DNA of 36,362 bases from Sanchytrium tribonematis (lineage: Eukaryota): positions 1 through 36,362 of the forward strand of contig JADGIG010000034.1 of NCBI GenBank assembly GCA_018985235.1. Direction: 5' to 3'. Both the position numbers and the translations under genes were made by a program. The notes under the pieces were generated by a model that did not search any database, was not told the DNA's origin, and saw only the letters and a list, made by a program, of their open reading frames with translations. Positions 13,948-36,362 of the stretch are shown here, in pieces. The first letter of the stretch is position 1. Each line of letters begins with the position of its first letter.

Positions 13948-14156
13948 TTCTCGACTAATATAATTAAGAGTTGATAGAATCAAAGTCACACGTGAATAAT
14001 ATGAAACTGATTGCCGATAATTTTTATTCGTAAACAATGGGGAATAATCATATTGATGTATGAAGATCTTTAAATGAACACACAACTAGAGGTTTTTAAG
14101 GCAAGTGCGGCGACTATCAAGAAATCCCTCTGCGATAAAGTGTTTTTCAAGCCACA

Positions 14157-14987
14157 ATGATTTTTCAAAATATCGACTGGAGTCATTACATATATTTTGG
14201 AATCGCGATCAATGCGAATTTACAGGGATTAATTATGTCTCCTTTGCTACTTATGAAGGATTTTAAACGAAATTGGTTTATTGTGATATCTAATATTCTA
14301 TATTTCATTGGAAACTGGGTCTCATTTTTCGGTAATTCCATCGATTGTGACACGGCTATGTACGTAGTACAATTAACGATAATCACAGGCTCAATCTTTG
14401 AGGTTCACACGCCTCTTGTACGCGCTTATAAATTATTGGAAGGTAAGTTGAAGAGGAGCATTCCAATACTTAGTGGATCTTTAATTATATGTATATTCTG
14501 CAGTCTCGCTGGCATTCATAGTATGTGCTACACAAGTTCGTCTCATTTTGTGAAAATATTTGTTTCGATTGTTCCAGACTTGATTGCTAGTATATTTTCC
14601 ATTTCGATTTATTTGATCTCATTTTGGAAAATCATTGAACTTATTGATAGCAGTGAATTTGGCAAGGACAATCCTAAGATGCAAATGATAAGAGCCATAG
14701 CCAAATTTTCTATGTATTTTATGGTATTAGTACGATGTTGCATGATAGGATTTTCAATAGGAGGACTCGATACAAATCAAAAACTTTCCACTGCTTTAAG
14801 AACTAATCTAGTTGTGTTCTTAATGATAGTACAACTAACTCTAGAGCTCACCAAGTCATCAGGAGAAACATCTGAACGAAGTGATGTTGAATCAGTTGGA
14901 AAAAGAAGAAATACTAGAGACGATTTCAAGGATAATAACAAACAATCTGTAAAGCCAACCCAGTCATTTGCTATAATGCACGAATAA
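14157..14987 (+). CDS. Small 7TM GPCR-like protein, paralogue 2
   Basis: GIAINANLQG, FEVHTPLVRAY, SSEFGKDN, RTNLVVFLM; high similarity to the next gene. Confidence 0.8.
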   Translation: MIFQNIDWSHYIYFGIAINANLQGLIMSPLLLMKDFKRNWFIVISNILYFIGNWVSFFGNSIDCDTAMYVVQLTIITGSIFEVHTPLVRAYKLLEGKLKRSIPILSGSLIICIFCSLAGIHSMCYTSSSHFVKIFVSIVPDLIASIFSISIYLISFWKIIELIDSSEFGKDNPKMQMIRAIAKFSMYFMVLVRCCMIGFSIGGLDTNQKLSTALRTNLVVFLMIVQLTLELTKSSGETSERSDVESVGKRRNTRDDFKDNNKQSVKPTQSFAIMHE

Positions 14988-15044
14988 ATTTTAGATGTTA
15001 TAATTTGATAATATATTTTATGTTACTCGTGGTGGCTTGTTCAA

Positions 15045-15914
15045 ATGTCATCTTCAGGAGACTATTACGATTATGCTGACTGGGGATTTTACTTCTGTTT
15101 TGGAGCCGCTATATGCGCTAATTTTCAAGGATTGTTAATATCAACCGTGCTACTTAAGAAAAACTGGAGAAGAAATATCGTGATTGTCATAGCTAACATC
15201 TGTTATTTAATCAGCAATTGGATTTCATTCGGTCAATCTACAACAGAAAATTGCACCTCTACAGGATACGCGGTCCAAATAATGCTTATCTTTGGTTCCT
15301 TATTTGAAGCTCACACCCCTTTGCTTCGAGCCTTTTCCTTACTTACACCAAGGTGGAAGAAGGCGGCGCCAATTTTAAGCGCTATAATGATTATTGCCCA
15401 ATTTTGTACCTTAATTGGTGTGCAATTTATATGTGATTCAGAAGAACATCAGTTTATGGTGGTAGTTCATAGACGATCTGCTGACGCGGTCGCTTCTTTG
15501 TTTGCAATTTATATTTATATATTGTCATTCTCTAAAATTATTCAAGTAATTGATACTAGTCAGTTTGGTAAATCAAATGGAAGAATGAAAGTCATTAGGA
15601 CTTTGTCAAAATATTCCATGCTTTTCGCTATTGCCATGAGAGTTGTTATCGCTCTATTCGACATTGGACGACTTGACAAAAATGGAAAAGTTGTTATGGC
15701 AATGAGATCGAATATTGTGGTGTTTTTAATGGCTACACAATTGTGCTTAGAACTGAGCAAGTTGAGCAGTGACGGTTCAGAGTATAGTGACTCAGATAGC
15801 ATTACCGGTGCAAACAAGGGTACAGGATCAGCGACTGGTCATACTACATCCAAATCTAAAGCTGAGCACAGAATTTCAGCTATGTCCGCGTCCTCCAAAA
15901 AATTTCACAAGTAA
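15045..15914 (+). CDS. Small 7TM GPCR-like protein, paralogue 3 (tandem duplicate)
   Basis: GAAICANFQG, FEAHTPLLRAF, TSQFGKSN, RSNIVVFLM; S/T-rich C-tail. Confidence 0.8.
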   Translation: MSSSGDYYDYADWGFYFCFGAAICANFQGLLISTVLLKKNWRRNIVIVIANICYLISNWISFGQSTTENCTSTGYAVQIMLIFGSLFEAHTPLLRAFSLLTPRWKKAAPILSAIMIIAQFCTLIGVQFICDSEEHQFMVVVHRRSADAVASLFAIYIYILSFSKIIQVIDTSQFGKSNGRMKVIRTLSKYSMLFAIAMRVVIALFDIGRLDKNGKVVMAMRSNIVVFLMATQLCLELSKLSSDGSEYSDSDSITGANKGTGSATGHTTSKSKAEHRISAMSASSKKFHK

Positions 15915-18670: not shown

Positions 18671-18773
18671 GTTTTATCCTAGAGAACTTTCAATGTAAAA
18701 TAACATGTAAATTTAATAGGCAGCCGCACCTGGCTCTAACTAATTCCTTTTGAATCCATCAATTCAATGCAAT

Positions 18774-18788
18774 ACGCGTCATACGCGT
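18774..18788. promoter_or_regulatory. Tandem MCB elements (ACGCGT at 18774-18779 and 18783-18788)
   Basis: ATACGCGTC repeated twice about 40-55 nt upstream of the MBP1-like ATG, in the divergent POP1/MBP1 promoter. Confidence 0.7.
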
Positions 18789-18828
18789 CGAAGTGTGGCT
18801 GGTGATTGAAACATCAAAATATCAAATT

Positions 18829-20503
18829 ATGATTTATAGCGCTATATACTCTGGAGTTCAAGTTTATGAAATTAGAGTGAGAAACGTGGATGTAATGAGA
18901 AGAATGGAAGATAACTGGGTGAACGCCACACAAATTTTGAAAGTAGGAGATATTGATAAGCCTCAAAGAACTAAAATACTTGAAAGAGAAGTGCAAACAG
19001 GAAGACACGAAAAAGTTCAGGGCGGCTATGGAAAATATCAGGGAACATGGGTTCCATTTGAACGTGGTGTGCAATTAGCTAAAGATTACAATGTGTACCA
19101 TGTCATGAGTGAGATATTGGAATATATACCCGGCGAATCACAAATACAGCAAAAGAGATCACTGCCATCTAACCCAACCCCAAAACCACCCAAGAAAAAG
19201 AAGACTAGTAATTCTACTGCAATTTCCACCACAACCACAAGAAAAAATAATGTATCTAACGAATCTAAAAGCATTCCTACCGCTACATTTACTTATAATG
19301 TTCCACAGCCAAAAGACTATCGAGACCTTCTGATCAAATCGCTTCTGGAAAGTTCAATGGGTACACCGCCGTTTCTGTTAAAATTACCTCTGGATCTGGA
19401 TCTACAAATGAATTTGGACGCACAAGGACACTCGGCATTACACTGGGCATGTGCTCTTGCAAGAGTAGACATAGTCCGACACTTGTTGAAGATAGGAAAA
19501 GAGCGAAATGTAAATTTAAAACATCACCTTAATGTATTTGGACAATCCCCGCTTATGCGAGCCATCATGTATGCAGATAATTATGAGGAAAAAAGATTTC
19601 CGGAACTATTGGAAATGTTCAAGGATTCAATTTTCTCCATTGACTATATGAATCGCACAATCTTGCATCATATTGCCATAGTTTCTGGCGATGAGGGTAA
19701 GCAAGCCGCTTGTAATTATTACCTGAAATGCATTTTTGAGCTTCCAATTCAAGGTAAAGAAAAATTGCTGGACTTTGTTGATTTAGACGGACTTACCGCC
19801 CTTCAATTAGCTTTTATTAAGAAAAACAATAATTTGGCTAAAATTTTAATGAATTCGGGAGCCAAGCCTCCATCAATCTCGACACGTCCACTGGCTCAGC
19901 CAGCAGATCCTAATTCTCTCACTTACTTGGAAAATTTAAATTCAAGTTACTCTTCCCAAATATCACTATCACTGAAAGAGGCCAGAGAACTCAAATCTCA
20001 GCTAGACAGTCTGCAAAGTGTGGCTGGAGATTACTTAAATCAATACGAGCGTGTTAAAGCTATGAATAATGACCTGTCAAAACTTAAAGATCGAGAAGAA
20101 ACTTTAAAGAAGACTTTGAAGAAACTCAAGGTAGACATGTTTGATTTGGATATTAAAAATTATGTAAGAAAACATCCTAATTTGGAAATTCCATCAGACA
20201 ACTTAGACTTAAGAAATTTCGCATCTGAATATGTCTTGTCTTCTCAAAAGCCTGAAGTTCTAAGCCAAATGGCAAAAAATCTCCCGAAATTGAAAGAATA
20301 TGTCGAAAAGCAACAATTTCCAAAAGCCATGCTCGATGAGTGGGTGAACACTGTTGCAGATGGACATAAGGATGAAATAATTCGAGAAGGTTAATATTAT
20401 TCATGTAGATAACAGAGGAATTTCAAAGCTGAATCTATTGAAGAACATTATGACCAAAATATGTAACGTGAACGAGGCAGAATTAATAAAATTAGCACAA
20501 TAA
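18829..20503 (+). CDS. MBP1: MBF/SBF DNA-binding subunit (Mbp1/Swi4/Res-like: APSES/KilA-N, ankyrin repeats, C-terminal heterodimerisation motif); exons 18829-20389 and 20409-20503
   Basis: [63 protein letters not shown]. The spliced tail is [17 protein letters not shown]. Confidence 0.88.
20390..20408 (+). other. 19-nt spliceosomal intron GTTAATATTATTCATGTAG
   Basis: Contains the apparent stop. Removal gives [32 protein letters not shown], with the stop embedded in AATAAA. Confidence 0.8.
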
Positions 20504-21312: not shown

Positions 21313-21360
21313 ATAAATCAAGGTCGTATTATAATACTTCTGAAACTTCGTTGTGAGATA

Positions 21361-23635
21361 ATGAATCAATTAAAAGAAGCCTTTTCTAACAAAGACATAA
21401 ACTTGTTACTAAAAAGATGCAAATTGGTGTTAAATTCTTCAGGAAATGATGCCAAAGATTTGAATTCATTAGGGGTTGAAATATGGAACTCAGCTGTAAA
21501 GTTGCAACTGGATAAAAGATATAAAATATGCGCTTTTATATTGATGGCCGCATATTTTAAAGATTCTTATGATTTCAAATCTTCTATTAAACTTATTGCG
21601 ATGGCAGGAAGATTGCTTGCTGAATCGGAAAAAACAGACTGTGATTATATCTATGGTCTTGTATCAAATAGAATTGATCAAACTCTTGGAATGCTAAAAG
21701 CTAAGAACAAGTACCAAAAATTTGTTGCTGATATTGTTCCGATTTTGCTTTACAAACTAAAACAAGGTTGGTTTGAAAATGACCTTTCAATATCAATTCT
21801 TCATATTGAAAAGTTCATGCTGGTTCAAACATCTAAAATTGAAAAAGAACAATTATTGATGTGCATTCTCAATTTATACAGGTCAGATCAGCCTACAGAC
21901 GAAACTCAGTTGACTTTATTGTCGTTGCTTGAAAATTTAGCAAATGCCAGTGATAATCCTTTCGCAGCAAAATACTACTTGATTATCAGTGAGGTAAATT
22001 TGAAACTTAACAAAATAGAAGAAGCCAAATGTGCTCTGATTAAATCTTCTGAGGCGCAAATCATGTTAAAGGGGATTTTTCTAGCACTGACAATACCCAA
22101 TTTTCTCAACACATCCCCAGAAACGTTTCTATTCGAGTGTTTATCAAAAATTGGTATTGTGCATGAAACCTACAACGATGTTGCTTTGTTGTATAATGAA
22201 GTTTGTAAAATTTCCAATGAACTTGCTCTTGCCTATTTAACTGCTGTATTCTCAAGAAGTCGAGCACACCCTGCAAAATGTAAAGATTTAACTAACAAAA
22301 CTGCTTCTTTGATGTTAGAATGTTTGATAGGAAATGAAGACACAAAGCAAATCAACATTTTCATTGAAGACATATTTGAGACCATCAATGATGCAAAGCT
22401 TTCTAATAGTATTTGCATATTATTATGGATAAAGGGGGATGATTGTTTATCAAATTTTGAATACCAAAATGCTTTGAATTATTTTGAGCCATCTCTGAGA
22501 TTATTAAAGCCCGAACAAGATAATTATCTGATTCTGAAAAAGAAAATCTGTTTCTGCAAACTGCAATTAGGTGCTTTGGACTCCAGCGATATTTTAGACG
22601 ATCCGTTCCTATCGTTCCAATACAACTTGCTGTTTAGTATTTCAAATTGTTTTGGTTTAATTGAAAGTATGGAAGACCCTAATGTATTAATTGGATGTGC
22701 TTCTCTAGCTTTTCAAAAAAAAGAATCAAAACTTTTATTGTGTATTCTTGATAAAATTCATACTGTCTGCAGCAAAGGCGATTTGGATATTTGTTTGACA
22801 AGGGCAGCGATTCGTTTAGCCATCAAAGTAGATTTAAACATTGAATTGATCATCTCGATTCTTAAGAAAGCCGATAATCAACTTGATAAAGAGGAAATGA
22901 ACTGGTTTTACAATGTCACTTGGAATCTTTGCCTACAAATATATCAAATAGATCAAATATCTGCTTTTAGGTTGCTTGAAATCAACGTAAATTTTGCAGC
23001 AACAACAGATTTAAGAATTAATAGCCTTTTGTTCATGTGTTCTATAGGCTATGAGATTTTTGAGCAATATAACGTTGATCACATTTTAACCGATATTGAC
23101 AATGCTTGTAATCTAATAGCGGAAAATAATTTGACAGACTTGATCGAAACCTCGGCAAAAATGCAGTTAGAAATTTATATGTTATTTCAGAAGGAGCAAG
23201 AAGCGTTAGATCTCTTACCGTGCTTTAAGTCATTACAGCCCGGAATCTTAGTTGAAGTGTTGGAAAATAGCTGTATTTCGATAAAATGTAATTTTATTTA
23301 ATTAAGTTGCGATTCCTCTTTTAGAAACGATTTTATTGTCGAACAATATAGTAGCCATTTCCAAGGCGTTGCGAATTTTTATATCGAATCATAAAGAAGT
23401 TGACCATTTGCCTTATTTTAAAAAGGCCTTGGCTTTTGTTCACGATAAGGCGTATTGTCAAGAGGAACTTATTTGGCTCATGATAACTGCTTGGAATAAA
23501 GGGATTAATGAGTTCACTTTATACAAAAAAGTAGGCGAATGGTGTGATATCGCATTTCAAATCCTAAAGCATCTGGATAATAAGGAACAATACCAAAAGC
23601 AAATGGAAACTGCATATATCGAGATGATGCAATAA
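21361..23635 (+). CDS. SPO22: Meiotic TPR protein Zip4/Spo22/TEX11 (751 aa); exons 21361-23287 and 23307-23635
   Basis: LNSLGVEIWN, ILLWIKGD..L...YQNALNYF..SL, EEMNWFYNVTWNL, YCQEELIWLMITAWNKG. The two ORFs are joined by a 19-nt intron. Confidence 0.82.
23288..23306 (+). other. 19-nt spliceosomal intron GTAATTTTATTTAATTAAG
   Basis: Phase 1. Removal reads SIKFAIPLLETILLSNNIV into the 23336 ORF. Confidence 0.85.
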
Positions 23636-23848: not shown

Positions 23849-26434
23849 ATGATCCAGTTTTTGTTATTTGTGGTAGCTATTACCACACCAGTGGATTTAG
23901 AGTCTTTCTGTATTGAAATCGCGGACTTTTTCGCAACTTTAAATGCATATCGGACTTGGAGTGATACATATTGCACTAACACCACATTTCCGACTTTCTT
24001 TGGAGTTATTTACAATGACGCAGATTATATAATAGATTTCAACACTCTAGTCATACCTGGAACATTTGACTTTGCTAAGATCCCGTATGTTGATCAATTA
24101 ACTTACATAAGATTGAATGGAAATGAGATTACAGAAGTGGTGAATACAACATTAGCAGTGAATTTGAGACAATTGAGCGTCGCTAATAATTTGTGCACTT
24201 CAATACCACTATTACCCCAAAATCTAGCTGTATTTGAGTTTGACGGAAATCCAGTTCAAAACAGAAGCTACCTACCAGAATTACCACCTCGACTTGAGTC
24301 ACTTATGATAAGGTATTTGAGCTTGAACATATCATTGCCTCATCTTCCCACATCTCTGCGTTTTGTCGATATAGAATACAACACGTTCTATGGATTACTA
24401 CCAGATCTGAGTACTTTTTCGAATTTAACAAATTTCAAAGGATATGGTAATTATCTGACAGGCTCTCTTCGTTTACCAGAATCCGTTTTAGAATTACGCC
24501 TGAGTGGAAATGGGCTAAATGGGACTCTTCCAATACTACCTCATAATTTACAGACATTTATTGTCAATGGCAATCATTTCACAGGAACTTTGCCTAAATT
24601 CCCAGTTTCTATTCAAAACATTAGACTCAAAAACAATCGTTTAGAAGGAAATGTAAATTTAACAAATCCAAATTTGCAAATTGTAATTTTAAGTGGCAAT
24701 TTATTTTCAGGCACTCTGCTGGTTGACAGTTTGTCATTAACGCATTTAGATGCATCAGACAACTATTTTGAAAATGCGACCATTATTGCTAGTCAGTCGT
24801 TTTTCACCCCCCTCGACTGCGTGTTGACACTAAATAGAATTTATCTGGCTGAAGTAAGTGATCCAAATATTAAAAGTTGTGACATTACTTTTAGAAACGA
24901 TACCTTACCTTCAAATACGTTTTTGTCAGAAACAATATTAAAGAACAGCTTTTCTACGTTTTCCACAGTTTTAAATTCGTCAACCCAAATTGAGAGCCTT
25001 GCAAGTTACAATGGCGACACATTGACTGCAGAAGTTGCTGCGTCAACTTATGAAGTTGTTTTATCAATCTCTGAAAATACAGCATCTTCGAATTACCATG
25101 AGAGTGTGTCATTCGGCACAAATGATCTTGCTCCTACCGCTACTTTATCATCAGAGAATCTTTTACTGTCAAATTTTTATAGTAGTGAATCTACCGATAC
25201 AAATCCAATTACACAGACCAGTTTTCACGAAGGCTTATCGAATATAGTAGATGTTATTACCAACACTAACTCTCTAGATTCGCTTACCACTGTTGACTCC
25301 ACCAGTAGTTACAGTAGTTTCACCTCTAGTTTGGAAAATTCATATATGTCTAGTATTCAAAATTCGTCTCAATTATCTTCTAAAATGTTAATTTGGCAAA
25401 AAGCAAATATTATAACGATGGAATCAACAATTGTCTCTACAAGACCGATCGAATTAGCAGATTCTTCAATTGAAATTAAAGAGACGGCCATTGTCGTCAC
25501 TCGATTTAAGCAATTTACTTACAGCCACGAAGATCTAAATGTCACAGAATCGAAATCGAATGAAATTATACAAGTCTTTGCTAACCCGCCAAAAAACTTA
25601 CCTAAAAATTTTGTCAACAATAATTTAAGCGATCGTTTTGTTATACTTTTAAATTCCGAAATAGACCCATCCACAATTGTAGGAATTTTAATCGCCGGCT
25701 TGGCTTTGGTGACATATATAATATGCTTAATAGAAAGAAAGAAGACACTTGTTAAGCAGTTCAGCTTGCTTTTGATCAGTTTTTTATTTGTTGGAATATT
25801 AATATCATGTCTAGGACTGGTTTTTAATATACCAGGTTACTTCTGGGCTCGAAATATTTGCAAAGAAACTGGAATGTGGTTAGCTACGTTGTCTTTTATG
25901 TCTTATTATGCCCGAATTTTCTTTATTGTTGAAAGGCCAATCAATAGTAAGTTATTGACTAGGTTTTCCAATTTAGCGATTACTTGGTATATAACCCTGT
26001 TATTAGTTATATTGCCGACTCTGATTGTAGCTTTAACTTCCATATTCACATTCGATAATCAGTTTGTGCCAGTAACATTTGGGTGCATAAGGCTTTTAAT
26101 GCTGCTTAGATTCACCACAAGTGTCTTTCTCGAAGAATCAAAATTACTGCCATTTAAACCGGTCTTGGCGCTTCTGATATTAAGCGCTCTAGATTTGGTT
26201 TTTACGTTGCCATTAGAAATAACTAGTGAAGTTGCATTTGGCTTAGCCTCAATGTCTGCACTATTGGGCTACTTGCTTGTAGCTTTTTCATTGGTAGGTT
26301 GGAAACGGAAAGCAATGGAGTTACAGTCAACTAAATTGGCTTCGCAATTCACAAGTGTTTCTAAACATTTGGGACCTATATTCTCCTGGACAAAACAACC
26401 CGTAACGAAATCTGAGATTAGATCGAAACAGTAA
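23849..26434 (+). CDS. LRR-ectodomain receptor with S/T stalk and class-C-GPCR-like 7TM domain
   Basis: Signal peptide; LxxLxLxxNxLxGxLP repeats; S/T-rich stalk; 7 C-terminal hydrophobic helices with ICKETGMWL...YYARIFFI and EESK. Confidence 0.75.
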   Translation: MIQFLLFVVAITTPVDLESFCIEIADFFATLNAYRTWSDTYCTNTTFPTFFGVIYNDADYIIDFNTLVIPGTFDFAKIPYVDQLTYIRLNGNEITEVVNTTLAVNLRQLSVANNLCTSIPLLPQNLAVFEFDGNPVQNRSYLPELPPRLESLMIRYLSLNISLPHLPTSLRFVDIEYNTFYGLLPDLSTFSNLTNFKGYGNYLTGSLRLPESVLELRLSGNGLNGTLPILPHNLQTFIVNGNHFTGTLPKFPVSIQNIRLKNNRLEGNVNLTNPNLQIVILSGNLFSGTLLVDSLSLTHLDASDNYFENATIIASQSFFTPLDCVLTLNRIYLAEVSDPNIKSCDITFRNDTLPSNTFLSETILKNSFSTFSTVLNSSTQIESLASYNGDTLTAEVAASTYEVVLSISENTASSNYHESVSFGTNDLAPTATLSSENLLLSNFYSSESTDTNPITQTSFHEGLSNIVDVITNTNSLDSLTTVDSTSSYSSFTSSLENSYMSSIQNSSQLSSKMLIWQKANIITMESTIVSTRPIELADSSIEIKETAIVVTRFKQFTYSHEDLNVTESKSNEIIQVFANPPKNLPKNFVNNNLSDRFVILLNSEIDPSTIVGILIAGLALVTYIICLIERKKTLVKQFSLLLISFLFVGILISCLGLVFNIPGYFWARNICKETGMWLATLSFMSYYARIFFIVERPINSKLLTRFSNLAITWYITLLLVILPTLIVALTSIFTFDNQFVPVTFGCIRLLMLLRFTTSVFLEESKLLPFKPVLALLILSALDLVFTLPLEITSEVAFGLASMSALLGYLLVAFSLVGWKRKAMELQSTKLASQFTSVSKHLGPIFSWTKQPVTKSEIRSKQ

Positions 26435-26450
26435 TAAATCTTGACTTTTT

Positions 26451-27819
26451 TTATTCCTTATACGATTTTTTGGTTCTTTTCCGAAGATTTCTTGTTTCAC
26501 TGTCTTCACTTCCCAAAACATCTGATTGTAAAGATAGTGTTTTGTGAATCTTAGACTTAGACCTTTCTTTAGTGGGGGCGGAGTAAGAGACACTTTTAGG
26601 CAGATGTGGTGTTTGCTTCGAATTTAGGGTATCTACTAATACGAATTTGTATATTGCGAATAATATCAAGAATATCGCAAAGAGAGCCCAGCCCACGATA
26701 ACATGCGGTGGGAAAGGTTTTGGAAACATTCCTTTCCCAAATTTGATAACTATTAATAATTCTGTGGTTATTGCTGCCAGCATAACCCACGCATTTGGAC
26801 CTAACCTTTTACTACATAAAACTTAAATACTCAGATTCGTTTAAATAATGATATGCTTCTCTGACTGCTGGGAGAGCCATAAAATAAACCCAGACCAATC
26901 TCTGGGTGTTTAAAGGATGCTCTGGTGGAATATGTAGTACAAATTTCAAATAAAAGGCATTTAACTCGCAAAGCAATACAGTCATTGCAATTAAAATTAA
27001 ACCAACATAATGCCTAAATGTACTGGTGAAATGCCATTCAAATCTAGTCCAAGAATGAGGTGTGAATTGCTGAAACGACCGATAAACTTTCCCTTTTATG
27101 GTTGCTATAGAGGAAATTCCAGTCCATGAATATTCTTTTAGCTCCAAATATCTACATGTTTTCATTCCAAGAACTATCCCAAGATAATTGCAGACCATGA
27201 CATCTAATATCCAATGATCCCACCAACATTCTTTGAAATTAGGTAGCTGGTGTTCAAATGAATATTCTAATAGTTCAAATCCAATCGATAACCCCCAACA
27301 TAGGTAATAATCCCGTAACAACAGGGCTTTGAAAAACCATCCGAATGCATGAGCAATCACAAAAATGTCCATTTGCCTCATTACATTCGCATAATTTAAA
27401 TCGCACGAGTCTCCGTAACTTCTTTCCGTCAAGGTTTTTCCAAGTGTGTTGTCATAAGTTTTCAGCATATACATAACATCACTTTTTGATTGAGATAAGG
27501 TGAAAATTAAGATTTGTAAATAAATGATAGCACAACCAAGTACACCTCTCCAAAGTACCGGATGTGGTCTTAAAAAAGGCCCATTTTTAAACTGAACCAT
27601 TCCAAAGACAATAAATATAGTTGCGCTGCTCAATATTCCATACTTTACATTTTCAACAGTTTCGAAAGGGAAGAACGCGATATAAAAGAGCGCAGCCAAA
27701 ACCATAACTAGCACACTAAAAGAATGTGGGGTATATAAAAATTGAATATCAACGTCTTCCGTATCCATGCTGAGGCGTCGCGGGATATTTGGGAGAGGTG
27801 CCACTGAATTAGAAGACAT
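26451..27819 (-). CDS. PTDSS: Base-exchange phosphatidylserine synthase (PTDSS1/2 type, 449 aa); exons 27819-26831 and 26811-26451
   Basis: GPFLRPHPVLWR, DIFVIAHAFGW, FELLEYSFEHQLPNFKECWWDHWILDV, ELNAFYLKF, and spliced YLNESDKRLGPNAW...ELLIVIKFG. Confidence 0.93.
26812..26830 (-). other. 19-nt spliceosomal intron GTATTTAAGTTTTATGTAG
   Basis: Phase 2. Removal restores the conserved KRLG..W..........TE segment of PTDSS. Confidence 0.9.
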
Positions 27820-27979
27820 AGTGTGTTTCAAAAATTTTGCACTATTGCTGCAAGCATACCAAATCTCTTATGACTACGGCTTGGATATTCAGTTTAAAAC
27901 ATAAACAATATTATTGTTGACAAGGATGAAAAGTTGAGGTAAAAAATTTTATTTACAAGGCGGATAAAACAAAGTTCCA

Positions 27980-28459
27980 ATGGAAAAACTTGCTTCAGCT
28001 CTCAAACCACAAGTAGCTACAGAATTATTTGGATTTTTAAAACAACACCAAACTCTTAAACAAAAAGTGACGCAGCTTAAATCGCAATTAAATGTCAAAT
28101 TAGATTTTACTCCTAAACAAGGTGACTATGGAAAACATGTTAAACAAGCCGAGCAAGTTTACAAATCTTTTAAACCCAAGTCGGTAGATACTTCTGTCGC
28201 ATTGGAAAATATTTCTAAATTTGAGAAAGTTGCTTTAAAGAGAGCGGAAGAGACTTCCAAATTGGTTAGTCAGAGTGTTTCTCAATACAAAGAGTGCTTA
28301 CAAAACATTTCCAAAGCTTTACCTGTCGAAGAGTTGACTTTGAAAGATGTGGAGAAAGCATTCCCTGAAGTAGATGAAAAAGTCACCGAATTAGCCAATA
28401 AAGGTGAATGGTACAATGAGAATTACTATGGAAAATTCGGATCCATGAGAATTTTCTGA
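27980..28459 (+). CDS. ATP7: Mitochondrial ATP synthase subunit d
   Basis: LENISKFEKVALKRAEET, LQNISKALPVEELT..DV..AFPEVD, KGEW...Y..KFG. Confidence 0.85.
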   Translation: MEKLASALKPQVATELFGFLKQHQTLKQKVTQLKSQLNVKLDFTPKQGDYGKHVKQAEQVYKSFKPKSVDTSVALENISKFEKVALKRAEETSKLVSQSVSQYKECLQNISKALPVEELTLKDVEKAFPEVDEKVTELANKGEWYNENYYGKFGSMRIF

Positions 28460-28487
28460 GTAAACTATGTTCAGAATTTATTTACAT

Positions 28488-28928
28488 TTAAATTTGAGAC
28501 AAAATCTGTTTCCTATCATTTTCCTTAAATACAACGGAATGGACTTTTCTATGCCTAAATGACATAAGAATCTTTTTAGGATAACAAGGCAAGCTCTGAG
28601 ACTCTACTGCATTCAATTCTTGCTGAAGGCTCACATTCTTTGGCCGTTTTCTATAATTATTCGAGAATTCTTCAGCCCGTTCAATTCTCTGGTCATAATC
28701 CAAATATGAGTAAGTTGTGCAAAATACTGCACATCTCAATAAGTGTGATTTATATGCATAAGGCCGCGAATTAAGTTTTAGTCCCTTTTTACAAAATTGA
28801 CAAGCTACATGCAGACTATGCACATTTCTTTGATGTCTCAACATTGTGCACCGTTTTGTAAATCTTTTACCGCAGAGATTGCACTCTTCCATCTCTTTGG
28901 AGTGATTTAATATATCCATTATATCCAT
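28488..28928 (-). CDS. C2H2 zinc-finger protein
   Basis: CNLCGKRFTKRCTMLRHQRNVH plus CQFC...HLLRC (C2HC). Confidence 0.8.
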   Translation of the reverse strand: MDIMDILNHSKEMEECNLCGKRFTKRCTMLRHQRNVHSLHVACQFCKKGLKLNSRPYAYKSHLLRCAVFCTTYSYLDYDQRIERAEEFSNNYRKRPKNVSLQQELNAVESQSLPCYPKKILMSFRHRKVHSVVFKENDRKQILSQI

Positions 28929-29121
28929 TTAAGTGATATTGAAGTTTTAAAATGTCTTGGCAGGTTTAACCTAGACGTATAACGTATTTTATTTGAATGC
29001 GATACAAGAAGTCAAATATATGGCTTCCTTTCATACATAGTGATTCAGGCAAGAAGTGATTAATAAATTTAATAAAAATTTGTAACGGAGTTTATAAAGC
29101 AACAAGAACCAATTATAATCG

Positions 29122-29195
29122 GTCTCAGTGGGCAAGAGGTTTACGCCGTTGCTCTCCGGAAGCAAAGATCGGGAGTTCGAATCTCTCCTGAGACG
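29122..29195 (+). tRNA. tRNA-Arg(CCG), intronless
   Basis: Acceptor GTCTCAG/CTGAGAC, D stem GGC/GCC, anticodon stem TTGCT/AGCAA with loop CT-CCG-GA, T arm GGGAG-TTCGAAT-CTCTC, discriminator G. Confidence 0.92.
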
Positions 29196-29227
29196 ATCTT
29201 CCTTCTAAAATAATATTTTTGACTTGT

Positions 29228-30168
29228 TTATTGCTCACTAAATTCTTTAACTAATCCCCATTCACCATTAACTTGTTGCTGATACATATATACCTAAATT
29301 AGTATTGTAATACTTTGTTATCTCCACAACTAGCAGCCAATATTTGTCCCACCAAGGACCAGTTGACTCTCCAGACTACGTCTTTCAAAGAAATTTTTTG
29401 AATTTTAAATTCCTGATAATCGGATGTAGCATATATGTAAACATTTTTATCTTGCGAGCAAACAGCCAAAAATTGTCCAGGTAATCCTATTGAAGGTGCG
29501 CAACTAACATCTCGAACCCAGTCACCGCATAATCCAATTGGTTTCGGAGTCCATTTCGCCTGTCCTTCATCAACGTGCCTGGTCCATAAAATCACTTTAT
29601 TGTCAGACCCACCAGTTATAAGCCTTAGATTGCTGGAAACGCTTTCAGATCTTTTAACCAAAGAATTTGATTTTACAAAAGGAACAAAAGAAAGAGAGGT
29701 ACATCCTAAATGATGAGCTTCAAATGAATCAGTACTCCATTGCTTTGTCGATTCGTCGTAATATATTAAGGCAACACTTCCATCACTACATGCTCCACCA
29801 ATGATTAGCCCATACTCAACATCAGCAAATTCTACTTGATTCATACTCTTTTGTCCGCTATATTGGTATACTTTTTGCCAATGGTCACTGAATTTATAAA
29901 TGTTGATTTGCTTGTCATAGCCGCAAGTTGCTAGAAGATTATATTTTGGATGTGAAAATTGGACATTCCAAACTGGGCCAGAGTGATCTTTTAATACGTC
30001 TTGTAAAACATAATTTTGTGGCCCACTGGAACTTGTCGTCTTGAAAATTCTGACTGTCTTATCACTAGATCCAGTGGCTAATAAGGTACCATGGTAATTA
30101 AATGCAGCAGAATGTATCACATCTTCATGACCAGAATCAAACTCGTTCTTGTTGGATAATTTCTCCAT
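29228..30168 (-). CDS. SEC13: COPII/nucleoporin WD40 protein Sec13 (306 aa); exons 30168-29314 and 29293-29228
   Basis: SGHEDVIH, ATGSSDKTVRIF, HSGPVWNVQFSHPKY, DWVRDV, VWRVNWSLVG, spliced GDNKVYMYQQQVNGEW. Confidence 0.95.
29294..29313 (-). other. 20-nt spliceosomal intron GTATTACAATACTAATTTAG
   Basis: Phase 0; contains the apparent stop and a TACTAAT branch-like site. Removal restores the Sec13 C-terminal GDNKV.......GEW. Confidence 0.9.
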
Positions 30169-30229
30169 GTGTCAAAAATTGATTTGTGTATTCCCATGAA
30201 ATTTGTGCGATATCTCAGCAAGCCACACT

Positions 30230-31291
30230 ATGGACTCATTAATTAAAGAAAATACGCGTTTAGTAGAATTACTTAGGAAGGTCCATCAAGTTTCCGTTGA
30301 AGCTTATACCGATATTTTACATTTAAATTCAAGAGTTAAAAATTTAGAAGAGGAAAATACTAAAATACTGACAGAGAATAATCAATTAAAAAACCAATTA
30401 CAGCTTATTGATGACAGACAAGCAGCATTAGAAAATATTAGCAAGGCGATCAAAGTAGCTGTTAGCGAATTTCAAAAACTGAAAGACCAATATAATCTTG
30501 AAGTTCAAAAACGCGAGCATGCCGAGGAAATCGTTGAAATACTTGAGACTAAAATAGAAAAATTAGAGAAAATAATCAAAGCAAACCAAACTTCAACGGC
30601 CCCCAGCCTTAATAATCCTTATTTAAAAGAATCTACTCAGCTTAGAAATGAATTATTAGGGGTTCATAGAGAACTTAGGGAATCAATTAAACAGTATGAA
30701 CAGGTTAAAACTCAACTCGGAAAGTCAAAAGAACATCAGCAATATTCTAACGGTGAAAGAATTGGATCCAACGTAAGTTTTAGAACACAAAATACATACA
30801 AAGAAGAAAAAAATAGTGATAACGAATCGGAAACTAATAGAACATTTTTAACAAGCGTCGCTAGCCCGGTTTCGCATTCTGACATTGCAAATGCCAGACT
30901 GACTCAATTGAAATCGTTGGTAGGTGAAATGGATGCAACTCTATTATCAACTCAAAAACCGCTATATAAACGACGAGAATCGAGTTCTCAAATAAGCACA
31001 GTATCATCTATTCCTGTATTTCAATTAGATGCGAACTCCAATGTTCCATTTGCCACAGAGTCGAGTGGTACGATACAGAGTAAAAAGTCAGAACCTTTTA
31101 GAAGACCATCCTATCAATATAATAGTCAAACTGTAGTTAGAAGACCGTCTGTTACAGAGATAAAAACCCGACCAATTTCGCCACCCAAAGACGGCAAATT
31201 CATTCAAAGGATATCAAAATTTGACGAATATTTTGACCAGCTTCAAGATGAGCTTCTGGCTTTAGGTTCGCCCTCTGAGCAGAAGCCCTAA
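30230..31291 (+). CDS. Coiled-coil protein with a shootin-like N-terminal segment and disordered S-rich tail
   Basis: Heptad-rich N-terminal about 170 aa containing LENISK...SEF...LEVQKREHAE. First ATG is 30230. Confidence 0.7.
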   Translation: MDSLIKENTRLVELLRKVHQVSVEAYTDILHLNSRVKNLEEENTKILTENNQLKNQLQLIDDRQAALENISKAIKVAVSEFQKLKDQYNLEVQKREHAEEIVEILETKIEKLEKIIKANQTSTAPSLNNPYLKESTQLRNELLGVHRELRESIKQYEQVKTQLGKSKEHQQYSNGERIGSNVSFRTQNTYKEEKNSDNESETNRTFLTSVASPVSHSDIANARLTQLKSLVGEMDATLLSTQKPLYKRRESSSQISTVSSIPVFQLDANSNVPFATESSGTIQSKKSEPFRRPSYQYNSQTVVRRPSVTEIKTRPISPPKDGKFIQRISKFDEYFDQLQDELLALGSPSEQKP

Positions 31292-31336
31292 ATTATAATA
31301 ATAAATATCTATTTACTTTCAGGTTTCAAATTTGAG

Positions 31337-32545
31337 ATGTTTCCGAGAATATTCGTGGAAAACTCACATGGGCTACCTTATAAGGAGTTAAAATCAAATA
31401 GGAAAGTGAGTGATTCTATTGGAAATAATTATTCTCCTTTTGCAAAAGACCTTAATTTGGAAATTTTAGCCTTAAATAACACCGCAAGTATATCAAAGAA
31501 AATATTGGTAGATATGGGTGAATTACTCAAAGAAAAAAAGTCCAAACTCGTCACATCAAGACCACAATCTCCACTTTCGCGAAAAAGAGCGATTCATATT
31601 AGCAAGGCAATAGACGACAGATTTATATACTACGTCGAGAATCTTTTTGACGAAGATTGTATTTGCAATTTCGAAACTTTTCAACAATTAAATATCCCTC
31701 CTGAAAGATATGATGATTTCAGCTCATCTCAGAAATGGGCTATTTTGAATTATTTATTATTGGAATTCAAAGAGTGCGAAAGGCTCGTAATGACCTCTTA
31801 TCCTCCTTCGTTTCCACAATCATTCAAGACTCATGCACCTTGGAGTTCAAAACTTATTCGAGAACAATTTAAACTACCTTTTTTCTATAATACAGAATTG
31901 TTTAGGAATTATTTCGACATTACAACCCGTGAATTACAACCTTTTGAAGAGAAAAATTTCTCTTTGTATATTGAAAAATATATAAATTTGCTATCTTCAG
32001 AGAAATTTTTATTAGAGACTACATTCAAAAAAATTTCTGATTTACGTTTGCAAAAATTAATCAAGTTTTCTGCTTTGAATCAGTTCCTATTGAGTTTGAG
32101 TCAATCAATTCAAATTAAAAACCACTTTGAGATTGAGGTGGTAAACCTTGAAAGTGACTTGCAATTAAGTCATGACAGCACTAACTTGCGGAAAGATGTA
32201 GAAGCTTTTCTGAATGCTTTAAACAACTTTTTGGAAGACATGAATATGGAGGCCGTCCCTGAACTTGAACATCATTTAAAAATAATTAATTTGATTTTGG
32301 ATGGCATGGAGTTGGAATTTAAAGACCTAAAGCAGCAAATTATTGAGAATTTGAGAAATGTGACAAATTTGGTTGAGAGTTGTACTTCCTTCAAGGAAAC
32401 TGAAAATCTTTTGAATTATGGAGAACGGCAATTAGATTGTAAAAAAAAGCTTAGACAGATTTATCCTCAAAGTATCAAATCACAGAATTTTGTAATTTAT
32501 TTTCACAAGTATGTTGCATCCCAAATATCACGAGTAGAGAAATAA
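31337..32545 (+). CDS. 402-aa protein resembling only the N-terminal tail of an inner-arm axonemal dynein heavy chain (DNAH3/7/12 type); no motor domain
   Basis: RFIYYVEN and DDFSSSQKWAILNYLLLEFKECERLVMTSYPPSFPQSFKTHAPW resemble the RYxYY and DY..S..K.I.DYIL.D..E..RL.I...P..FP......VPW motifs. No P-loop. Confidence 0.6.
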   Translation: MFPRIFVENSHGLPYKELKSNRKVSDSIGNNYSPFAKDLNLEILALNNTASISKKILVDMGELLKEKKSKLVTSRPQSPLSRKRAIHISKAIDDRFIYYVENLFDEDCICNFETFQQLNIPPERYDDFSSSQKWAILNYLLLEFKECERLVMTSYPPSFPQSFKTHAPWSSKLIREQFKLPFFYNTELFRNYFDITTRELQPFEEKNFSLYIEKYINLLSSEKFLLETTFKKISDLRLQKLIKFSALNQFLLSLSQSIQIKNHFEIEVVNLESDLQLSHDSTNLRKDVEAFLNALNNFLEDMNMEAVPELEHHLKIINLILDGMELEFKDLKQQIIENLRNVTNLVESCTSFKETENLLNYGERQLDCKKKLRQIYPQSIKSQNFVIYFHKYVASQISRVEK

Positions 32546-32548
32546 ATA

Positions 32549-33904
32549 TTAATCGTAGTATTCTGATTCGCGAACGTCTGTAAACATACTGTTTTCAGTG
32601 TACATTGTATTTTGTTGTTCGTATTTAGACTCATATTCTGGTTCGTACTCGGGCTCAAAATCAGGATCTTCAGTATACTCAGAATAATTAGTTTTGGTCC
32701 TGTCTTCTGTAAATTCTGTATAGTTAGTCTTGGTACGATCCTCTGTCAGATCCGATAAATCTGAATTGTTGTCGTCAGAAAATTCAGTGTAATTTGTTTT
32801 GCCTCTACTGGTCAATTCCGAATAATCAGTGAAGAATGTATCAACCTTCGAGTAGTCATTTTCAGAAGGTATATCACTTGCATTTGAATATGCTGTGAAG
32901 CCATCACTATTTTTTGAAAAATCAGTGTAAATAGTGTTGCTTGCGAACTCGGAATACTTATCATCATCGCTTTCTTTAGAGTAGGATGTCCTACCTACAG
33001 AATAAGTCGTATACTTGTCTGAATTAGAGTCTGTTGATACTCTTTTGCCACTAATGTCTTCAAATTCTTGCACATTATCTGTTTCACTCCATTTTGTTTC
33101 TCTTGGATCTTCAGCATATCCAGCTGTAGAGATATCTGTATATGTTGTTTCTCTAATGCTATCGAGCTGGTTCTCAGACGATCCACTGCTCTCGTCTATT
33201 TTATAAGTTCCACTAGAAATTTGCTTTCCAGTTTTAAATCGTGAACGGAATTTAAAACATAATCCAACGATTAGGAAAAAAACCAAGGCACCAACTATGG
33301 ATCCAATAATGACATAAGGCAATGTGTTTGGAGTCGGTGGAGGACTAGATATATCTACCATTCCGTCAGTCTGTAAAAACTCAGCAGGAATGTCAGTGGT
33401 AACACTGGTTAGGTCAGTTGTCGCGGAGTTATCTGCAGATTGATATACAGCTTGTTGATTTGATGATACGTCGGGCAAAAATCGTAGTAAAAATCCATTT
33501 ACAACATCGGGAACAATTTCCTGTAATAATAACGTCATATTCGTTCCTTCTTGAATATTACCATTCACACCAATAAATCTAAACAAAGTTGAATACTGAT
33601 TGTTGGTTTTGCCTAGAGCATCTTTCGGGAGACGCGCATCAAACCACAAATTTGGACTTAAATAAATGCTAAATGGTTTCCATATTTTTAGAATTTTCGT
33701 TTGTGAAGCAAAATTTAAACTCAGTGCTATTGCATTAACTGTATTTGCTTTTGAAAGAAAATCTTCTGGCACAGATGCCGTGAATTCTGCACCAAATTGT
33801 CTAGCCTTGTAGTCGATATATTTCACTTGATAAGAAATAGAGGAGCCTGGTATCTTGGGGGGTGATTGAGCCATTACTAGAAGACCCGGCCAAAGAACCA
33901 TCAT
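32549..33904 (-). CDS. Type I membrane protein with folded ectodomain and long acidic Tyr/Ser/Thr-rich cytoplasmic tail
   Basis: Signal peptide, TM YVIIGSIVGALVFFLIVGLCF followed by KFRSRFK, repetitive tail. Confidence 0.8.
   Translation of the reverse strand: MMVLWPGLLVMAQSPPKIPGSSISYQVKYIDYKARQFGAEFTASVPEDFLSKANTVNAIALSLNFASQTKILKIWKPFSIYLSPNLWFDARLPKDALGKTNNQYSTLFRFIGVNGNIQEGTNMTLLLQEIVPDVVNGFLLRFLPDVSSNQQAVYQSADNSATTDLTSVTTDIPAEFLQTDGMVDISSPPPTPNTLPYVIIGSIVGALVFFLIVGLCFKFRSRFKTGKQISSGTYKIDESSGSSENQLDSIRETTYTDISTAGYAEDPRETKWSETDNVQEFEDISGKRVSTDSNSDKYTTYSVGRTSYSKESDDDKYSEFASNTIYTDFSKNSDGFTAYSNASDIPSENDYSKVDTFFTDYSELTSRGKTNYTEFSDDNNSDLSDLTEDRTKTNYTEFTEDRTKTNYSEYTEDPDFEPEYEPEYESKYEQQNTMYTENSMFTDVRESEYYD
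32675..32746 (-). repeat. Two 36-nt coding tandem repeats (TEDRTKTNYTEF / TEDRTKTNYSEY)
   Basis: Units 32711-32746 and 32675-32710 differ mostly at synonymous positions. Confidence 0.8.
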
Positions 33905-34184
33905 AGCAAAATGCCGGAAATCAATTAAGTATTGTAATTAATTTAACTTGCAGCCAATCAGTTAGAAAAAAAGTAATACGCAGGGATTTTGAAAATTGGC
34001 ATTTGCTGTGGTACGTAATTTTTCATATGTTCTTTCAGATGAATAAAATCTCTATACAATTATGGAAAATACAATTGGACTTGAAACGAGCCAGCCAGCA
34101 TTGCATACAGGTGGAATCATTTGATTCGAGGAGTCTGATTGGTACACATTTATATATTAATCGATCAGTTTCCGTTTGCCAATT

Positions 34185-35084
34185 ATGAGTCAAAATTATC
34201 CGTACCAGGCTCCACAACAGAGATTTTCTTTCGTTGACACTCACCAGACATCAGCTTTCGATCGTCCACTTTCACATCAGGATCCGTATCAATCGCCATC
34301 TGAAGGAAAATATAAAAATCAAGAATATTACGAACAACAAAATTTGAATGACAGTTATGCGGAGGAAGAAAACTCAATTTATGACACGTCTGATTATGGC
34401 AGATCCACTCTCAACAAAAATGAATCAACAGCTAATTTTGGTAATACAAAGAAACGTGGTTGTGTTTCTAGACCAATTTGTTATTTTCTATCATGCTGTT
34501 GTTTTTTGATAGTCGTCGGAATTATTCTTTTAGCAGTTGTGTTGCTGACATTCAAAGTACCATCATTGGATGTCGGATCTATAACACAAGGTGATCCTCT
34601 TTATGAAGTCACAAAATCTGGAAGTAGCGTCTCAAAAAGGAGCTTCTTAGATATATTTGGAGGCTCTTCAAAGGTTTCCGCCAGTGATATTCCAGAAAAC
34701 ACTGACATTAAAGTTAATTTAATTGCCAACTTGGTCATTGACAATCAAAATTGGTATAAGTTGGCGATTGGAAATCAAGTGGTACAAATGTTTGTTAAGT
34801 CGGACATGAGCAATTCAATTGGTAGTGGTGTTTTGCAAAGCGACATTCCTGCTAACCAAAAATCAAATAATCAGATAAATATGCAAGTTGAGTATAAAAA
34901 GCAGGGTACTCCACCGGCGGGGATTCAATATTTATTTGACAAATGTGATGGAACAAATCAGAATATAGACTTGGTATTTCGAGCTAAAGTGATAGTCAAA
35001 ACGGTCGACATTCCAAAGACACTCCCTTGTCCAGTCAATTTGCAGGACCCTCAATTAAAACAAAAGATTCAGGATGCACAATAA
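34185..35084 (+). CDS. Type II membrane protein with LEA_2-like beta-sandwich ectodomain
   Basis: Disordered N-terminus, KKRGC...CCC, single TM, FKVPSL, IDNQNWYKL (N.N motif). First ATG is 34185. Confidence 0.72.
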   Translation: MSQNYPYQAPQQRFSFVDTHQTSAFDRPLSHQDPYQSPSEGKYKNQEYYEQQNLNDSYAEEENSIYDTSDYGRSTLNKNESTANFGNTKKRGCVSRPICYFLSCCCFLIVVGIILLAVVLLTFKVPSLDVGSITQGDPLYEVTKSGSSVSKRSFLDIFGGSSKVSASDIPENTDIKVNLIANLVIDNQNWYKLAIGNQVVQMFVKSDMSNSIGSGVLQSDIPANQKSNNQINMQVEYKKQGTPPAGIQYLFDKCDGTNQNIDLVFRAKVIVKTVDIPKTLPCPVNLQDPQLKQKIQDAQ

Positions 35085-35085
35085 A

Positions 35086-35469
35086 TTATTTTTTATTGAT
35101 GGCTAATCTCTTTTGCTTCTTCAAGCTACGAACCTTAAATCGATCAAAATCAGTTAAATTTTCTCTCTTCTCGCGTTTGACATGTCTTTTGTAAAGTGCA
35201 GTCTCCTTGATTTTTTCATTAAATTTTGCAGCTTCTAATTTTTTCTTAAGAATTCCGGATCTAAGTGCTCTTGGAATATCCAAAACGATAGGTGTTAATT
35301 CCAAATGTGTAAATTTAACTTTTTTTGGATAGTATTCAATTCCTCCGATTAAACCAAAGTTTTGGTCAATGATATCACTTATGACTCCGAATTTTTTCTC
35401 AAAAGATAGATACACGACTCTACCTACTTGAATGTAGTGACGACTAGGTGTAGTAACTTCACAAGGCAT
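35086..35469 (-). CDS. RPL14: 60S ribosomal protein eL14
   Basis: YIQVGRVVY, ISDIIDQN, LELTPI...IPR, KRENLTDFDRFK. Confidence 0.95.
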   Translation of the reverse strand: MPCEVTTPSRHYIQVGRVVYLSFEKKFGVISDIIDQNFGLIGGIEYYPKKVKFTHLELTPIVLDIPRALRSGILKKKLEAAKFNEKIKETALYKRHVKREKRENLTDFDRFKVRSLKKQKRLAINKK

Positions 35470-35536
35470 TAATATTTTTGACGAAGGAGATGAAATTGAA
35501 AAAACACGTGAATTTATTGTGAGACATTTTGCCGAA

Positions 35537-36362
35537 TTAAAATGGGGGTACCTGATAGAAAAAAAGCCCGTTTTCAGAAAACAGAGCTAATGTTTTATCG
35601 TAGAGAGCCATTTCTAAAAATGAGCCTTCAACCCTGCGAATCAGTTTAAATTGGATAAATTCTTCGACGCCTTGTTTTGTAAGTAGCAAACATCCATTAA
35701 ATGACGGAGCAATATTTATGACATTTATAGCCACACAATGCATTATTGTCATCTCATTGGAAACAACGAAAAATTCAAACCTGGAGCTTGCGTAGATCTT
35801 ATTTTTATGAGTCCTGATATGGGTAATTGCGAAATTTGTCAATGTCACGCTGTTTTCAAAGACGCACATATCGTTCGAAACTCTGTATTGCTTTATAATA
35901 CCATTATATGTTCCAATTAATATAAAGTCATTTCCCAGCGATGCGAACGAACTGATATTTTCATTTAGAACAAACTTCTCACCCATTAGAATCCCTTCGG
36001 ATAGCGCTACCAAGTTTTTGGAATAAGAAATATCCAGAATTTTAGAGCTGTGGATTTCCTTTTTGTTATATGATTTAAAATCAATGGTATTACCTAAATA
36101 CGTGCCAAATTGACTTTCCATTATAGCACTAATTTTTTCGTGTAATTGTTTGGTATTCATATTGCCGCCTTCATCAATGAGGTACAAAAATGATGATTTT
36201 TGATTGTTAATAACAACTAAACAATTCTGATCATTGATACTTAAGAGAACTTCCTCGTATTTCTTCGCCTGTATTTGATTAATAGCTTTCATTAGATAAT
36301 AAGCATTAGAGTCTGCATATTTGTAAATACCTGAAAACATTCTATTTTCAATTATTGCTTCT
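35537..36362 (-). CDS. Degenerate WD40/beta-propeller-like protein, possibly 5'-partial
   Basis: IHSSKILDISYS and ILIGTYNGIIKQY. The frame stays open upstream of Met 36340 to the window edge. Confidence 0.6.
   Translation of the reverse strand, partial: EAIIENRMFSGIYKYADSNAYYLMKAINQIQAKKYEEVLLSINDQNCLVVINNQKSSFLYLIDEGGNMNTKQLHEKISAIMESQFGTYLGNTIDFKSYNKKEIHSSKILDISYSKNLVALSEGILMGEKFVLNENISSFASLGNDFILIGTYNGIIKQYRVSNDMCVFENSVTLTNFAITHIRTHKNKIYASSRFEFFVVSNEMTIMHCVAINVINIAPSFNGCLLLTKQGVEEFIQFKLIRRVEGSFLEMALYDKTLALFSENGLFFYQVPPF

Follow-up and report, generated by a model that had tools for sequence, protein, structure and literature searches.

In our judgement, a whole lineage of early fungi probably cut an axonemal dynein heavy chain at a conserved point in its tail and has kept the remaining foot under selection, either as a motor-less inner arm or as one part of a split dynein. 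The gene in question, P0001, is an open reading frame (ORF) of 402 amino acids at 31337..32545 on the plus strand of a 36,362-nucleotide stretch of DNA, which was analysed at its full length and is referred to here as the window. P0001 is derived from the tail of DNAH3, the heavy chain of inner arm c, and we hold its tail-only architecture to be secure at high confidence.

Results

P0001 opens with an ATG at 31337, closes with a TAA at 32543-32545, and has no internal stops over its 402 codons; an identical entry is present in the protein collection. An earlier note on this DNA had described an uninterrupted ORF of this length, a stop embedded in AATAAA, and a convergent gene 3 nt further on. 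All three descriptions are borne out, as the coordinates, strand, and length were right, the TAA sits inside the AATAAA at 32541..32546 (plus strand), and a minus-strand ORF finishes at 32549, leaving a 3-nt gap. Gene ends of this type are common in the window, where 8 of the 28 other gene ends (chosen from the ORF list) have their stop in AATAAA as compared with 90 of 1848 TAA triplets, and where the ends of further convergent pairs are 1-3 nt apart. The embedded AATAAA and tight convergent spacing of P0001 are normal gene ends for this window.

The convergent neighbour (32549..33904, minus strand) is predicted to span a membrane once and carries a repetitive tail that is acidic and rich in Tyr; it has no Pfam family or dynein match, and it fills the space where further dynein exons would lie. 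The upstream neighbour (30230..31291, plus strand) is coiled-coil-like, is assigned to no family, and ends 45 nt ahead of the P0001 ATG. In-frame splicing of this upstream ORF to P0001 is possible from 5 of its 11 GT sites, none of which has a donor consensus, and this arrangement was rejected; the relatives of P0001 begin at the same MFP.

Motor sequences were sought throughout the window. The neck/linker family DHC_N2 (PF08393) is absent from P0001, from its relatives, and from all six frames of the 36-kb window, and no AAA family was found in the 33 window ORFs scanned by Pfam. DNAH3 references that extend into the AAA ring gave no other match in the window, with which tblastn agrees, and in a six-frame scan of 1421 window ORFs P0001 alone matched the DNAH3 profile (E 1e-8; next best 2.8). 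The suggestion in the earlier note that no downstream motor exons exist is therefore upheld at the locus and within the 36-kb window, and is shown for that window alone. Given a tail-only match and no motor in the window, P0001 is best described not as a member of the dynein motor family, but as a DNAH3-derived tail piece.

The N-terminal half of P0001 carries the DNAH3 signal. Residues 1-40 (31337..31456, plus strand) form a DNAH3-specific N-terminal block with the consensus P..F....P.KE....R...DSIGNNYSP.A.DL, which scores 29.8 bits against a DNAH3-only profile and corresponds to human DNAH3 94-126. The motifs SRP.SP and RF.YY follow in conserved alignment columns at residues 74-99 (31556..31633, plus strand), and residues 122-169 (31700..31843, plus strand) comprise a helix and a degenerate DYIL.D..E..RL...RAPVPW block (16.1 bits against the DNAH3-only profile; human DNAH3 279-340). 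P0001 retains 26 of 47 near-invariant DNAH3 columns, its docking motifs of DNAH3 type occur in order over about 220 residues, and its initial MFP aligns with residue 16 of one chytrid DNAH3, near the N-terminus of that protein.

Profile comparisons point the same way. The earlier note had proposed an HMM comparison with chytrid axonemal dyneins, and in hhalign residues 1-222 of P0001 aligned with chytrid DNAH3 79-389 (probability 99.4, E 1.8e-21; 18 DNAH3 references). A profile built from the 18 DNAH3 references alone gave 50-61 bits for the N-terminal halves of P0001 and its three full-length relatives, the four proteins that we call the short family. A search seeded with DNAH3 fragments served for collecting references alone. 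One record met during the work, P0013, has a phosphoglucomutase fused to a DNAH3 N-terminus and is likely a gene-model error. When the four-protein profile was run against 177,635 PDB sequences it found two matches, both DNAH3-type: human DNAH3 (E 7e-9) and a 4069-residue chain (E 2e-10), with which a mammalian DNAH3 query has its strongest match. A second family-profile search of PDB gave one match, DNAH3. The DNAH7, DNAH12, and algal chains in the PDB library were unmatched by the short-family profile, and phmmer with P0001 alone gave nothing meaningful against PDB. Pfam recognised neither P0001 nor its relatives, DHC_N1 included; matches to MPS2 and CheZ fell below cut-off and were judged to be helical noise.

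These comparisons show that residues 1 to about 220 of P0001 are, by sequence, a homologue of the docking region at the N-terminus of DNAH3 (inner arm c). Among heavy chains P0001 appears to lie nearest to DNAH3, ahead of DNAH7 and DNAH12, an assignment based on the profile matches, as the tree described below contains DNAH3 only. Descent from the tail of a single-headed inner-arm heavy chain, as the earlier note had claimed, is thus supported by both the short-family profile and hhalign. Its attribution to a DNAH3/7/12 type needs narrowing: P0001 has a degenerate version of the tail motif that it named (RFIYY at 95-99, ILNYLLLEFKECERL at 136-150, HAPW at 166-169), and the match is specific to DNAH3, not to DNAH7 or DNAH12. 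Its estimate that about 90% of the gene was lost is corrected as well: counted along DNAH3, P0001 covers approximately the first 15%, and parts of that stretch are deleted internally.

A full HMMER search against 1.84 billion representative sequences returned nine matches at E <= 0.001. Four of these are P0001 itself and three relatives of full length; the other five are short and DNAH3-like, and one of them bears the name dynein axonemal heavy chain 3-like. The relatives P0002, P0003, and P0004 (424, 437, and 404 amino acids) are 26-29% identical to P0001, align with it from residue 1 to residues 389-393, and have C-terminal ends within two alignment columns of its own. Their source contigs, in ENA assemblies, are 4.3-9.6 kb long, and the stops of these relatives are inferred from the shared alignment end, which can be counted as a natural end because random contig ends would not meet at one column. 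The C-terminal halves of the short family are also homologous to each other: leave-one-out scores were 26-80 bits, and none of the roughly 300 shuffles run for each exceeded 9.7. A tree computed from 25 rows of the N-terminal region, restricted to DNAH3, unites the short family in a single clade with support of 100/99. End branches within the clade are 0.6-2.4; that of P0001 is 2.2, against a median of 0.51. Long-branch attraction may add to the support. A clade with such long branches implies that the reading frame has been kept open over several substitutions per site. The P0001 family thus consists of genes that encode the N-terminal part of the tail alone and stop at a conserved position, and the same end in three distant full-length relatives agrees with the view of the earlier note that the ORF ends naturally. 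This points to an old, maintained truncation, neither a misassembly nor a decaying pseudogene.

Longer forms of the family were not found. A word-indexed search with P0001, itself a weak search, gave none among 7989 candidates of 705-2010 residues, and the same kind of search with the family alignment returned P0001 and P0004 alone among 7994 candidates. Two scans of JGI metagenome contigs gave 160 and 151 matched stretches, none of which was confirmed.

The C-terminal half, residues 226-402 (32012..32542, plus strand), is predicted to form two helix/beta-hairpin bundles that are homologous within the short family and resemble dynein tails in fold and features. Four sequence tests found no similarity of this half to DNAH3 beyond shuffled controls: the HMM score was below 0 bits, hhalign gave 17.7 as compared with up to 19.4 for shuffles, ungapped block slides placed the top match where expected for one of five blocks, and glocal profile alignment scored -76 against shuffle means of -82 and -74. 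A first structure model, built from the four short proteins with no dynein sequence, had a mean pLDDT of 45.8 and was confident only from about residue 310 onward. The first 16 Foldseek matches listed for it all came from axoneme or dynein entries, with the human DNAH7 and DNAH12 tails at the top; the best E was 1.1e-3, and no match reached 0.001. When residues 226-402 were compared by VIA, 176 residues aligned with a chain of a mouse RS3 entry at Z 8.3 and rmsd 3.8, and 169 with cytoplasmic dynein 896-1122 at Z 8.3 and rmsd 6.2; plectin, at Z 8.4, was level with these dynein tails. A wide fold search preferred spectrin-like repeats and did not discriminate. A second model, with DNAH3 rows included, had a mean pLDDT of 49.4 and gave DNAH3 as its top Foldseek match (E 1.6e-3), which is not independent because DNAH3 rows went into the model; VIA returned no dynein rows for it. 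By their pLDDT values both models are poor.

Other indications are consistent with a dynein tail. ESM features of residues 200-402 fell into DHC_N1 clusters at 0.96 in 24 of 30 matches, and those of the whole of P0001 gave 0.93, with a low recognition value. MAFFT placed residues 340-381 collinearly on DNAH3, with residue 381 at chytrid residue 528 or rabbit residue 597; a non-significant PDB stretch agrees with this placement, which is not proof. Judged from the models and features, the C-terminal half likely corresponds to the opening pair of bundles in the heavy-chain tail. DHC_N2 starts at 813-819 in four references, and P0001 would then stop about 200 residues short of the neck-linker domain. 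The retained span is some 130 residues shorter than in chytrid DNAH3, a shortening that would fit relaxed mechanical demand.

The window as a whole is very gene-dense, with a GC content of about 35%. It encodes a Ste12-like factor (562-1893; STE plus two C2H2) and a KilA-N/ankyrin factor (18754-20394; Pfam), both of which we take as a pointer to fungi or their close kin. Two membrane ORFs in overlapping frames (1948-3580, plus strand) have a conserved-domain match to adenylate cyclase that is below cut-off (E 0.002) and a GTAAGT at 2497; together they may form a single spliced gene that has the membrane regions of a cyclase-like protein but lacks a catalytic domain. A helical-repeat gene (21313-23635, plus strand) with a weak SPO22/ZIP4 match (E 0.007) is divided into two successive ORFs, the stop lying at 23301 and the next frame running from 23306; this break could be a short intron, a frameshift, or a split meiosis gene. 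Three related-looking multi-pass membrane ORFs, two of them in tandem, lie at 12830-13540 (minus strand), 14139-14987, and 15012-15914 and have no Pfam family. A tRNA-Arg (CCG) at 29122-29195 (plus strand) adjoins a WD40 gene that is presumably Sec13-like. At 35855-36274 two contig bubbles, with seven differences each and similar depth, would fit either heterozygosity or a near-identical repeat; elsewhere 26000-35884 is uniform.

Discussion

The reading of P0001 that we favour, with a probability of roughly 0.45, is that it is a motor-less foot of inner arm c, which keeps actin and p28 in place at radial spoke 2 (RS2). An ancestor would have lost everything beyond approximately residue 550 of chytrid DNAH3, or residue 620 of the mammalian protein, some 200 residues before DHC_N2, and the remnant would have been kept since the foot is built into the base of the spoke. 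There it would hold actin and the p28 dimer within a flagellum that is likely simplified, and it would generate no force. We arrive at this as the best reading because the part that was retained is the docking part.

In human axonemes DNAH3 is inner arm c; its partners there are actin and a DNALI1/p28 dimer, and its place is on the base of radial spoke 2 (PMC10266980). Inner-arm docking sites are reported to be determined by heavy-chain N-termini (PMC10266980, PMC10886578), the tail of dynein c attaches via the front prong of RS2 (PMC4325840), and DNALI1 is bound by the mouse DNAH3 stem (PMC13104500). Among the partners suggested in the earlier note, actin and p28 thus have a basis in human DNAH3 and centrin finds none in these sources. 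The proposed mechanism requires RS2 to depend on dynein c, whereas the cited literature has the reverse, with RS2 docking dynein c.

Sanchytrids and Amoeboaphelidium possess non-motile pseudocilia and have undergone partial loss of flagellar genes (PMC8371127, PMC10459994), and by analogy they would be the kind of host in which such a dynein remnant is expected. A sanchytrid survey that used human BLAST queries scored single-headed inner arms as absent, and one sanchytrid's annotation table in the same paper includes RSPH1, RSPH4, RSP3, DNAI1, DNAL1, and radial-spoke proteins, together with two long axonemal heavy chains with scores of 3306 and 3572 (PMC8371127). The text of that paper describes axonemal dyneins as lacking, yet its table has the long axonemal chains. 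The table also has a weak DNAH10 match (144 bits) that may be another dynein remnant (PMC8371127).

The main rival reading is that a second gene, elsewhere in the genome, supplies what P0001 lacks. P0001 would then be the docking foot of a split axonemal dynein, the second gene would encode the neck, linker, and motor, and both products would assemble into inner arm c. In Agaricomycetes two genes, dhc1 and dhc2, encode cytoplasmic dynein; the break lies in the tail, at residue 1180, and is conserved, and split dynein is reported to have had three origins in Basidiomycota (PMC4540427). VIA puts residue 402 of P0001 at cytoplasmic dynein 1122, which is roughly the same region if the numbering is assumed to be equivalent. 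This agreement between the mushroom split and the fold alignment keeps a split DNAH3 viable, and a conserved end in four proteins is equally predicted by it. Set against this, the P0001 tail is internally shortened and strongly diverged (end branch 2.2 as compared with the median of 0.51), whereas split dyneins are described as having no marked rate increase, Malassezia excepted (PMC4540427). A tail that has diverged fast and been shortened internally speaks against a working motor, though the host may evolve fast generally. The second half is also absent from the 36 kb, a distance to be read against known halves that lie up to 500 kb apart (PMC4540427), and one pseudocilium-bearing fungal phylum was scored as having no single-headed inner-arm dyneins, a point relevant for such a host alone (PMC8371127). 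Overall, we consider a split dynein rather unlikely. It is more doubtful still that P0001 is a motor-less scaffold that has been repurposed after its axonemal site was gone, and that now links to actin or microtubules, either at the basal body or within an amoeboid spore's cytoplasm. Sanchytrid axonemes of four singlets with no central pair would offer no ordinary spoke site (PMC8371127), and the C-terminal half has diverged beyond sequence recognition and resembles spectrin-like bundles. The best-kept residues of P0001, however, are the DNAH3-specific N-terminal motifs, and such N-termini are reported to set axonemal position (PMC10266980); moreover, the RSPH1, RSPH4, and RSP3 entries in the sanchytrid table indicate that spokes can persist in such lineages (PMC8371127).

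Two further explanations carry less weight. P0001 could be an old partial duplicate beside a full-length DNAH3, serving as a spacer or competitor at inner-arm-c sites, and short DNAH3-like proteins are indeed annotated in animals (e.g., P0008, 363 amino acids). P0008, however, clusters with fish DNAH3, outside the P0001 family, and no second contig matching the P0001 locus at 80% identity was found in the same sequencing run, a result that rules out a recent copy alone; we regard a duplicate as improbable. An artefact or a decaying gene, in the form of a misassembly, an intron hiding exons, stop read-through, or a pseudogene, has been largely refuted already and seems to us the least credible explanation. 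A donor-like GTATGT does lie at 32509-32514, within the last 12 codons, but splicing from it to nearby acceptors yields products of 394-443 residues in which the last residues alone are altered, and any longer product would require an intron of about 1.7-1.9 kb that bypasses the convergent gene and leads into an ORF unrelated to dynein. If TAA and TAG are read as Gln, a TGA is reached seven codons beyond the P0001 stop. One contig of 21,292 bases covers 26000-35884, crossing the locus with no differences at a flat depth of 129; this support is not independent because the sequencing run, the only one that contains the locus DNA, may be the source of the window. The end that P0001 shares with three independent relatives argues against an artefact as well.

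If the motor-less foot is the correct reading, P0001 would be the first natural inner arm without a motor, a purely structural part of the radial-spoke base; if the dynein is split, it would be the first split axonemal dynein, extending split dyneins from the basidiomycete cytoplasmic form to an axonemal motor. No natural tail-only or split axonemal heavy chain was found in the literature searched, which misses most subscription papers. A foot of this kind would indicate an order of flagellum loss in which the motor goes first and the anchor last, and P0001 would offer a molecular intermediate of that process as well as a natural experiment that separates two jobs of the inner arm, force and scaffolding. 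It is also a candidate for the minimal docking module, of about 400 residues, of DNAH3, a human male-fertility gene. Pfam is blind to P0001, which suggests that surveys of presence and absence with full-length queries overlook such remnants. Since feet would be missed by searches with full-length dyneins, flagella scored as having no inner arms may still have a scaffold.

The closest known system is DNAH3 itself, as represented by the human chain (8j07_g3, 4116 amino acids) and the chytrid proteins P0012, P0014, and P0015. P0001 has the DNAH3 docking motifs in the same order, and the models suggest that the next two tail bundles are likely common to both. Unlike DNAH3, which is about 4100 residues long, P0001 ends after 402 residues, some 200 residues ahead of DHC_N2; the linker, AAA ring, stalk, and microtubule-binding domain are missing, internal deletions amount to about 130 residues, and its C-terminal half is unrecognisable as DNAH3 by sequence.

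The split dynein of Agaricomycetes resembles P0001 in that its tail piece has a natural gene of its own, and in that the break is conserved across relatives and falls in a comparable part of the tail; as of 2015 split dyneins were described solely from basidiomycete dynein (PMC4540427). Agaricomycete dhc1, in contrast, is a cytoplasmic dynein-1 of 1180 amino acids with a dimerisation domain and a known motor gene (PMC4540427), whereas P0001 is of the single-headed axonemal type, with no partner gene in the 36-kb window; its sequence matches axonemal DNAH3 alone, with no DHC_N1 match in Pfam.

In Chlamydomonas mutants, motor-less heavy-chain fragments assemble in place (PMC2156140, PMC2119660). 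The oda4-s7 beta chain and the truncated 1-alpha chain of I1 are motor-free tails that occupy the right site and support their partners (PMC2119660, PMC2156140), as the P0001 foot would. These fragments are the products of mutants or transgenes, belong to multi-headed arms, and have masses of 143-160 kDa (PMC2119660, PMC2156140), whereas P0001 is natural, conserved, about 47 kDa, and of a single-headed arm type.
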